Assembly (NCBI RefSeq): GCF_024223415.1
Contig: NZ_CP100500.1
Direction: 5' to 3' (one strand)
From: Escherichia coli
Lineage (GTDB): Bacteria > Pseudomonadota > Gammaproteobacteria > Enterobacterales > Enterobacteriaceae
DNA: 64,000 nucleotides
Part shown: positions 32,901 to 36,410 of the stretch, piece after piece
Position numbering within the stretch: the stretch's first letter is position 1
Layout: each line of letters starts with the position of its first letter
Position numbers: made by a program

Positions 32901-35900
32901 TATACACCGCGTCAATGGCATCGCTTTCCGCCATCGCTTCCAGCGACGTAAACAGATGCTCGACAGAAAAATCATTGGCGAAATGCTGGGCCTGTTCAAG
33001 GCTGCGGGAATAAACGGCGGTTAACTTGTATTTACCGCTCTCATGGGCGGCCTCGACGAACTGGCGAGTGATCCAGTTCGTACCAATCACAGCGAAACGT
33101 ATCATAACGCGTGGATACTCCATAAAGGGATTCTGCCGTCAATGTAGCACGCCTTTTTCATCTTCGACGTGCGCGGATACGCATTATTTCTGCGCTGGAC
33201 AACCATGCTCACTAAACGGACCAATAATGACCGACGGCCCGAGATATTTTGGCTGACGATGGAAGATTTTCGCGTCAATCACCGCGCTGATTCTGGCGAG
33301 TTTCTCCCGTAACTGAGTATAAAAACCGTGCTTCATATTCAGGTCTGGTGCGTTAAACCCGATAGCATCGATGCCGTATTGTTTTGCCAGCCAGATGGCG
33401 CGTTGATTATGAAATTCCTGCGAGATAATGGTGATATGGTTTTCCCCAAACACCTTTTTGGCACGCACTACCGAATCCAGCGTTGAGAATCCGGCATAGT
33501 CGCAGAAGATCACTTTCGCCGGTACGCCTTTAGCGATCAAAGCCTGCTGCATACCTGATGCTTCATCGTAATTTTTACGTCCGTTATCGCCACTGACTAA
33601 CAGCCATTTCACTTTTCCGGCGTGGTACAACTCTGCTGCGGTATCAATACGTCGGGTAAAGTAGCGATTACCCGGCCTGGCCCCCAGCAATAAGCCCACG
33701 TTACGCGCCGGAACGACGTTGACGTCGCTCCAGGTCAGCTGTTTGCTGGCGTTGACCATTACGCGATCGGCGATAAAAATGGTCGCTCCTGCCACAAGTA
33801 ACAGTAAGCAGGCAATCTTTAGAGTCCGGCGAGAAAAACAAATACGGAGAAGAAGGCGGGCAAATGCGCGCAGCATGGTCGTTATCCTTAACGAAAGGGG
33901 GGAGGTCGATTTTAGGCGCTAAAGAAAGAAAAGATAACGCCTGACATCATTTTCAGATTTTGTCCTGCCCAAGCGACAACTGGGTTAGCCACAGTCGGGT
34001 GTCGAACTCAAGCTGGTGGTACTGGGGTTCCATATGACAGCACAACTGGTAAAACGCTTTGTTATGCTCTTTCTCCTTCAGGTGCGCCAGCTCGTGCACC
34101 ACGATCATGCGCAAAAACGGTTCCGGCGCGTTGCGAAACACGGTAGCGACGCGGATCTCTGCTTTTGCTTTCAGCTTGCCGCCCTGCACACGCGAAACAG
34201 CGGTATGTAACCCGAGCGCGTTTTTCAGCACATGGATCTTGTTGTCATACATCACTTTATTGATCGGCGGGGCATTGCGCAGAAACTGATTTTTCAGATC
34301 CTGAGTATATTGCCAGAGGGCTTTATCGGTGGCGTAGTCGTGTGTTCCCGGATAGCGTTTTGCCAGCACATCGCCCAGACGCTGTTCGTTAATCAGTGTT
34401 CGCACCTGGGAAAGTAGCTGCTCGGGATAACCCTGAAGATAAGTAAGATTGCTCATAACCGCCCACGAAAAAGAGAAAAAGGGTATACTCACGCACCCTT
34501 TTCAGGGGCAATGTCGAAATTTTATCATTCAGGAGGGCCGATGAGCCACTTAGACAACGGTTTCCGTTCACTGACACTACAACGTTTTCCGGCGACGGAT
34601 GACGTTAACCCGCTACAGGCGTGGGAAGCGGCGGATGAATATTTGCTGCAACAGTTGGACGACACAGAAATCCGCGGCCCGGTGTTGATCCTGAATGATG
34701 CCTTTGGTGCGTTAAGCTGCGCGCTGGCGGAACATAAGCCGTACAGCATTGGCGACTCATACATCAGTGAACTGGCGACGCGCGAGAATTTACGCCTCAA
34801 CGGGATTGATGAGTCGAGCGTGAAGTTTCTCGACAGCACCGCCGACTACCCGCAACAGCCGGGTGTGGTGCTGATCAAAGTGCCGAAAACACTGGCATTG
34901 CTGGAACAGCAACTGCGTGCGCTGCGCAAAGTGGTCACGTCGGATACACGTATTATTGCCGGTGCCAAGGCCCGTGACATTCACACTTCCACGCTGGAAC
35001 TGTTCGAAAAAGTGCTCGGCCCGACCACCACCACGCTGGCATGGAAAAAAGCGCGCCTGATTAATTGCACTTTCAATGAACCGCCGCTGGCCGATGCGCC
35101 GCAGACCGTTAGCTGGAAGCTGGAAGGTACTGACTGGACTATCCACAACCATGCGAATGTCTTCTCCCGCACCGGGCTGGATATCGGCGCGCGCTTCTTT
35201 ATGCAGCATCTGCCAGAGAATCTCGAAGGTGAGATTGTCGATCTCGGCTGTGGTAACGGCGTTATTGGCCTGACGCTGCTTGATAAAAACCCGCAGGCGA
35301 AAGTGGTGTTTGTCGATGAATCGCCGATGGCGGTTGCTTCCAGCCGTTTGAACGTTGAAACCAACATGCCAGAGGCGTTGGATCGCTGCGAATTTATGAT
35401 CAACAACGCGCTCTCCGGCGTGGAGCCTTTCCGCTTTAATGCTGTGCTCTGCAACCCGCCGTTTCATCAGCAACATGCGCTGACCGATAACGTCGCCTGG
35501 GAGATGTTCCACCACGCCCGCCGCTGCCTGAAAATCAACGGCGAACTGTATATCGTTGCCAACCGTCACCTGGATTACTTCCATAAACTGAAGAAGATTT
35601 TCGGCAACTGCACCACTATTGCGACGAATAATAAATTTGTGGTGCTGAAAGCAGTGAAGCTGGGACGTCGTCGGTAAGATTAGCAGCTACCTGCCGGATA
35701 AGGCGTAAACGCCTTATCCGGCATACGTTCTGCACGTTACCCCCATGTCGGATAAGACGCGGCAAGCGTCGCATCCGGCAATGTCTGCCCAGTTCTGGAA
35801 TCGCGCTCCATAAAACAAAAAATCCCTGTCACCATCCTCTACATTCTCTTGTTTAGCGTTGTTCAACGTTTATGCTACATACGAGAAGGTTTGACGCATA

Positions 35901-36410
35901 AAGAATACGATTTCTTTACCGCTGTTCATCGTACTAAGGGGAAAAAATGATTACGATTGCCGACATCTTGCAAGCAGGAGAAAAGCTAACTGCTGTGGCA
36001 CCTTTTCTGGCGGGTATTCAGAACGAGGAACAATACATCCAGGCGCTGGAACTGGTAGATCATCTGCTGCTCAACGATCCTGAAAACCCCTTACTGGATC
36101 TGGTGTGTGCCAAAATAACCGCGTGGGAAGAATCAGCGCCCGAATTTGCGGAATTTAATGCCATGGCTCAAGCCATGCCTGGCGGTATAGCCGTGATTCG
36201 TACCCTTATGGATCAATATGGTTTAACCCTTTCCGATCTGCCGGAAATTGGCAGTAAATCTATGGTGTCACGCGTTTTGAGCGGGAAGAGGAAATTAACG
36301 CTGGAACACGCTAAAAAATTGGCAACGCGATTCGGCATTTCTCCCGCCTTGTTTATTGATTAACGCGACGTGCCGGATGCGTTGCATCCGGAGCTTCAAA
36401 TAACGATTTA

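Follow-up and report, generated by a model that had tools for sequence, protein, structure and literature searches.

The chromosomal higBA operon (ygjN-ygjM) of Escherichia coli K-12 encodes the type II toxin HigB ahead of its antitoxin HigA and is transcribed from a single promoter that is repressed by HigA, with primer extension in K-12 detecting no start site upstream of higA (Christensen-Dalsgaard et al., PMC2814082). Complete HigBA systems are present in the strains K-12 and HS, and an orphan higA located between fadH and rlmG was described for some B2 strains, including CFT073 and NRG857c (Bustamante and Vidal 2020, PMC7232551). Orphan antitoxins and degraded toxin-antitoxin loci are also found elsewhere, among others in the Klebsiella pneumoniae complex, where they were proposed to be relics, regulators or to confer anti-addiction (PMC7354431). 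Here, we have analysed the corresponding locus in a stretch of 64,000 nucleotides from the E. coli contig NZ_CP100500.1, which we refer to as the window, and where an inspection of the sequence had proposed higB to be reduced to a 3' remnant next to an intact higA. Alignment with K-12 and tblastn searches bear this proposal out, and we are confident that the window contains a 325-bp deletion allele of the chromosomal higBA operon between rlmG and fadH, which would constitute a decay intermediate and is a widespread, long-standing polymorphism.

In its general organization, the region resembles higBA of K-12 with respect to its location between rlmG and fadH, the toxin-first order, the ATGA overlap of both reading frames and the presence of upstream repetitive extragenic palindromic (REP) elements. 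Unlike its K-12 counterpart, it encodes neither a toxin nor an addiction module and is devoid of autoregulation, owing to the loss of 325 bp harbouring the promoter, the operators, the Shine-Dalgarno sequence and codons 1-79 of higB. The alignment with the higB-higA locus of K-12 MG1655, which had been suggested as a check of the original prediction, displays one clean deletion, with both sequences being collinear on either side of a single gap at 35872|35873. The missing K-12 DNA (L001:5220-5544, minus strand) encompasses 88 bp preceding the ATG of higB, which hold the promoter, two operator palindromes and the higB Shine-Dalgarno sequence, and the initial 79 codons (237 nt) of the gene. The description of the orphan higA in CFT073 and NRG857c fits the window, and the identity of the junction in these strains would follow from this description. 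As in orphan antitoxin loci in general (PMC7354431), a decayed toxin gene is accompanied by a preserved antitoxin reading frame, whereas the history of higBA in E. coli differs from such loci in being fully resolved, with intact, deleted and empty alleles coexisting in one species.

The consequences of the deletion for the control of the operon are manifested in the properties of the missing segment. A promoter scan places the K-12 higBA promoter (TTGCCA-16-TATCAT, 10/12 consensus positions with an upstream TG) at L001 5515-5488, inside the deleted DNA, where it is embedded in two operator repeats of the form TTGCCAAT(C/T)TG(G/T)CAACGG, both of which are absent at this locus in the window. A single deletion has thus removed the coding capacity for the toxin, the sole known promoter and the known operators together. 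No sigma-70-like promoter was detected between 35400 and 36450 by a standard scan, and a relaxed scan returned only weak candidates matching 7 of 12 positions, which are not convincing as replacement promoters for higA. Similarly, a relocation of the HigA operators within the window is ruled out, since no operator-like site with up to three mismatches is found in the 64-kb window, and the promoter-borne operators through which HigA represses its own synthesis are missing.

Downstream of the junction, the frame closing with a TGA at 35948-35950 translates to CYIREGLTHKEYDFFTAVHRTKGKK*, and its stop codon overlaps with the start of higA in an ATGA at 35947-35950. In a tblastn search of the 64-kb window with the 104-residue K-12 HigB, which had equally been proposed as a check, residues 80-104 match positions 35873-35947 with 23 of 25 residues identical (92%) at an E-value of 1.4e-12. 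This is the only significant match and thus identifies a higB remnant far beyond chance, with no further pieces of HigB detected in the window, where all other matches have E-values above 0.3. A search of the 25-residue fragment against NCBIfam yielded no match. The spacer between the end of rlmG at 35677 and the start of higA at 35947 amounts to 269 bp, as was originally noted. The assignment of the entire region 35678-35950 to the remnant holds for 35873-35950, which is the part derived from higB, but not for 35678-35872, which is native intergenic DNA that also separates rlmG from higB in K-12.

The original prediction had further stated that the remnant lacks a start codon, which is correct for ATG and GTG but overlooks an in-frame TTG at 35849. 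Latter opens a reading frame of 33 residues on the plus strand (35849-35950), in which eight spacer codons are fused to the 25 codons of HigB in a purely mechanical manner. On reading the sequence, we found no purine-rich ribosome-binding sequence directly preceding this TTG, and the frame is probably not translated. A full-length HigB-like open reading frame, including such with non-canonical start codons, is found neither in the interval nor elsewhere in the window. The stub thus shares homology and the overlapping gene order with higB, whereas it is devoid of a complete frame of about 104 codons, of an ATG or GTG start, of a Shine-Dalgarno sequence and of a promoter. It qualifies as a dead pseudogene rather than as a member gene, and a RelE-like toxin of roughly 100 residues cannot be formed from 25.

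The REP elements preceding the remnant had been assumed to take the place of the 5' part of higB. This assumption is not correct, as both upstream REPs are found at the identical position in K-12, O157:H7, JJ1886 and every other aligned allele, where they precede the higBA promoter. The alignments with K-12 and 15 further alleles rule out a replacement of the 5' part of higB by REPs, and this part was instead removed by the 325-bp deletion. The elements themselves are genuine constituents of the REP or bacterial interspersed mosaic element families, as they display the consensus palindrome, are placed between genes and occur in high copy number, with 31 matches to the REP consensus in the 64-kb window compared to 4.9 expected. 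Each of the two upstream REPs folds into a strong hairpin, yet no T-tract comes after it, and they are thus not canonical intrinsic terminators.

The microhomology at the deletion junction is confined to a single T. In its vicinity, we have also observed a 21-nt direct repeat of 81% identity (35849-35869 and 35912-35932) as well as an imperfect inverted repeat of 14 nt that spans the junction. Neither of them is positioned to yield this junction, and we have thus treated both as chance occurrences and dismissed them as cause of the deletion. The coordinates of all features of the locus are listed in Table 1. Among the flanking genes, rlmG of the window differs from its K-12 counterpart at 16 of 1137 positions.

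Table 1. Features of the rlmG-higA-fadH region in the window (positions refer to the 64-kb stretch).
Feature	Position	Strand	Basis
rlmG (23S rRNA m2G1835 methyltransferase)	34541..35677	+	Open reading frame; identical SCU-316 locus annotated rlmG, 1137 nt
REP element 1, perfect 15-nt palindrome	35692..35723	.	Inverted-repeat search and REP consensus
REP element 2	35745..35781	.	Inverted-repeat search and REP consensus
Conserved intergenic DNA, in K-12 directly upstream of the higBA promoter	35782..35872	+	Alignments; stops at the deletion junction
Junction of the 325-bp deletion, ambiguity of 1 T by microhomology	35872..35873	.	Alignment
higB 3' remnant (pseudogene), codons 80-104 and stop	35873..35950	+	tblastn, PGAP annotation, alignment
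Shine-Dalgarno-like AAGGGG, 5 nt before the higA ATG, inside the remnant	35936..35941	+	Same in all aligned alleles
higA, intact, 138 codons	35947..36363	+	Open reading frame; annotated higA in SCU-316
REP-like palindrome between the convergent genes higA and fadH	36366..36395	.	REP consensus at 36372-36392; SF-088 alignment
fadH (2,4-dienoyl-CoA reductase), convergent downstream neighbour	36408..38426	-	Open reading frame and annotation

To place the allele in the context of the species, we surveyed 5,426 complete E. coli genomes with a 120-bp probe spanning the junction, for which the E-value cutoff was set such that half-matches fail. The identical deletion junction is found in 1,521 of these genomes (28%), while the 325-bp K-12 segment is kept in 2,848 (52%) and about 1,050 (approximately 19%) contain no match to higA. 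In megablast searches, a match to the junction probe and the deleted higB segment never occur in the same genome, and the three groups account for all 5,426. The deletion is thus no peculiarity of the strain from which the window originates and is shared by strains such as Nissle 1917, ATCC 25922, O104:H4, O111:H11 and O113:H21. It is also already known, as a pseudogene in RefSeq annotation and as orphan higA in the literature. In the identical locus of SCU-316, in Nissle 1917, O111:H11 and others, the stub is labelled by the RefSeq annotation pipeline PGAP as 'type II toxin-antitoxin system toxin HigB; incomplete; missing N-terminus'. The gene-name field of the search tables was rejected as proxy for the intactness of higA, since a higB disrupted by a frameshift is still listed under its name. 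What our analysis adds are the exact end points, the joint loss of promoter, operators and toxin, the frequencies of the alleles and a catalogue of their decay states.

Within the stub of the window, three substitutions are clustered in 8 bp (at 35884, 35889 and 35891), where they convert CGTGAAGTTATG to CGAGAAGGTTTG and give rise to the replacements V85G and M86L. Among 16 alleles compared, these substitutions occur in the window and in SCU-316 only, and only 27 of the 1,521 deletion genomes reach at least 99% identity with the window across the 120 bp of the junction probe. The cluster could reflect either a multi-nucleotide mutation or the unconstrained drift of a pseudogene.

The polarity of the change follows from a comparison with other species of the genus. 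In a scan with an exact 26-nt pattern, which is blind to diverged loci and empty sites and which provides a polarity but no date, two representatives of other species were recovered, E. whittamii and Escherichia sp. E1V33, and both contain higB coding sequence upstream of higA. In Escherichia sp. E1V33, the whole higBA locus is present including the promoter, and in E. whittamii the stored locus begins inside higB near its 5' end. The presence of higB in other Escherichia and the in-frame match of the stub to the C-terminus of the toxin establish the short form as the derived state. A reversed scenario, where the short form would be ancestral with K-12 having gained the 325 bp, or where the junction would reflect an artefact of assembly, has nothing in its favour beyond its formal possibility. 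An insertion cannot create an in-frame stub of 92% identity to the C-terminus of the full toxin in conjunction with a preserved ATGA, the gene is found in both other species, and the junction is common to 1,521 independent complete assemblies. We thus consider this scenario as effectively refuted and assign it next to no credence.

Whereas the deletion is clearly derived, its distribution raises the question of whether it has occurred once and subsequently spread by descent and homologous recombination, or whether the identical 325-bp deletion arose repeatedly at a hotspot. In a distance tree of rlmG, the deletion alleles are polyphyletic, and each major cluster also contains intact and empty alleles in their neighbourhood, as would be expected from recurrent events. 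Moreover, single-nucleotide polymorphisms situated 5-12 bp left of the junction, the two nearest ones on this side, vary among deletion alleles (GTTGTTCAACG compared to GTTTTTCTACG, at 35859-35867 of the window), with those of CX08 matching the flank of the intact allele of O121:H19, and in a comparison of the window with the loci L004-L015 both haplotypes occur with and without the deletion. However, the junction is base-identical in all 11 deletion alleles examined, and the 120-bp probe finds an unbroken match in 1,521 genomes. With a microhomology of 1 bp and no suitably placed flanking direct repeat, repeated identical illegitimate deletions would be improbable, and other independent lesions in higB end at different points. 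A heterology of 325 bp would in turn provide a natural end point of recombination tracts, which would explain the exchange of flanks up to the junction. On these grounds, a single event combined with recombination tracts ending at the heterology appears more likely, and we regard a recurrent origin as very improbable.

Besides the allele found in the window, our survey has revealed several other states of the locus. In strain 142 (L014 1589-1902), a full-length higB is frameshifted by the loss of a single nucleotide in a run of G. In MEW (L016 1276-1660), a 29-bp deletion merges the two operator repeats into one and a second deletion, ending just before the Shine-Dalgarno sequence of higA, has removed most of higB past about codon 36 including its stop, while higA is intact and followed by an extra REP. 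In Ec1117 (L017 361-432), the 325-bp deletion is accompanied by the deletion of one nucleotide within the 78-nt stub, and in CP61_Sichuan (L018 2500-2604), a larger deletion encompasses the REPs together with higB and the greater part of higA, of which the last 104 nt remain and are annotated as helix-turn-helix (HTH) pseudogene. Finally, in SF-088 (L003 3119-3235), which contains no match to higA, fadH follows 117 bp after rlmG. Alignment of this empty site with positions 35775-36400 of the window shows that the second upstream REP (…GCATCCGGCA) is joined immediately to the final part of the REP-like palindrome downstream of higA (…CTTCAAT), which is consistent with a REP-to-REP deletion of the whole higBA operon or, conversely, with an original insertion of higBA into a REP. 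Together, these states fit the usual decay of toxin-antitoxin systems, where the toxin is lost first and the antitoxin lingers and eventually may go. The loss of the toxin would in such case be harmless, and the leftover antitoxin would be tolerated rather than demonstrably needed.

The antitoxin encoded in the window is itself well preserved. Its sequence is identical to K-12 HigA at 136 of 138 positions, with A3T and T31I as sole differences, and it matches chain B of PDB 5IFG over residues 1-138 at an E-value of 2.8e-85. The C-terminal part contains an XRE-type HTH domain (Pfam HTH_3, residues 84-135, E-value 2.5e-7). With a score of 18.9 bits compared to a cutoff of 47.7, the protein is not a member of the NCBIfam equivalog TIGR02607 'antidote_HigA', and in place of an adjacent cognate toxin it is preceded by the 25-codon stub. 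Among the other deletion alleles, 2015C-3905 (L009) and FCI51 (L010) carry the replacements I4L, A5S, D6N and K13Q within codons 4-13 of higA, and 2015C-3905 contains three further replacements (A74V, Q75E and L111S). Both replacements of the window, A3T and T31I, are likewise N-terminal. In K-12, the N-terminal part of HigA contacts HigB, and a relaxed constraint after the loss of the toxin is a possibility to account for these changes.

Several observations weigh against an interpretation of higA as mere relic. An intact higA of 138 codons is found in 11 of 11 deletion-allele loci examined, and pairwise ratios of nonsynonymous to synonymous differences (pN/pS), calculated for a set of 10 deletion alleles, range from 0 to about 0.35, which could mean continued purifying selection. 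The proteins of NCCP15648, O111:H11, 317, Nissle 1917 and A42 are the same despite up to eight synonymous differences between their genes. Additionally, the junction has created a weak candidate promoter (TTGTTT-16-TATGCT, 35849-35876), which matches 7 of 12 positions with its -10 element being formed by the junction, and our literature search has provided nothing usable on the expression of higA (ygjM) in strains carrying the deletion. The preservation of higA would be accounted for if the orphan gene were under selection, either by conferring anti-addiction or immunity against incoming toxins of the HigB family, or as a transcription factor with new targets, in both cases produced from a constitutive rlmG-higA transcript. 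Anti-addiction is the usual proposal for orphan antitoxins (PMC7354431), and HigB-family toxins are indeed frequently encoded on enterobacterial plasmids, with 1,055 records in PLSDB of which 76 are from Escherichia. The persistence of the allele in 28% of the genomes, on backgrounds with widely differing adjacent rlmG sequences, points in the same direction.

Conversely, the signature of purifying selection on higA is confounded by its history. The higA haplotypes of deletion and intact alleles are interleaved, with the deletion allele of O111:H11 being equal to the intact allele of O121:H19, and deletion alleles are scattered across rlmG clusters. Much of the divergence may thus have accumulated in intact operons and was then recombined, so that most synonymous differences may either predate the deletion or stem from recombination with intact alleles. 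With respect to a role in immunity, nearly all plasmid homologues of HigB are less than 60% identical to the K-12 protein and the phage homologues reach at most 41%. The sole match of 100% in PLSDB (NZ_CP141089.1, H171) is an E. coli record of 4.94 Mb that looks like a misfiled chromosome. Type II antitoxins are usually specific for their toxin. Judged from these identities, neutralization of such distant homologues by HigA would be possible but is not expected. A selected function is also at odds with the removal of the promoter together with the operators, and with the complete absence of higA in about 1,050 genomes and its partial deletion in one. Taken together, we consider it unlikely that selection maintains the orphan higA. 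The more far-reaching proposal, in which the deletion has rewired higA into constitutive read-through from rlmG and free HigA is selected as immunity factor or regulator in approximately 28% of E. coli, we view as distinctly unlikely. If true, the advantage provided by HigA would explain the move of the allele by recombination into many lineages.

As a decay intermediate, the allele would encode an antitoxin that lacks its own promoter and that would no longer be autoregulated. Transcripts of higA, if there are any, would most likely originate from rlmG and extend by read-through past both REP hairpins, or otherwise start from weak cryptic promoters. The resulting protein would at most persist as a free antitoxin or HTH dimer without cognate toxin or operator. 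The label 'orphan HTH regulator', which was part of the original prediction, thus exceeds the evidence and is unproven, since the mapped promoter of higA and the DNA target known for its product are both gone.

The deletion allele is real but ordinary and leaves the current understanding of the system unchanged. Its prevalence nevertheless implies that about a quarter of E. coli strains, including Nissle 1917, ATCC 25922, O104:H4 and, as judged from published work, CFT073, are without functional chromosomal HigB and without autoregulation by HigA, and that results on the stress-induction of higBA obtained in K-12 do not transfer to these strains. At the same time, the locus offers a natural decay series that extends from intact operons to frameshifted, 5'-deleted, deleted with further decay of the stub, deleted into higA and finally empty alleles, and which could help to address whether selection preserves antitoxins after the loss of their toxins.

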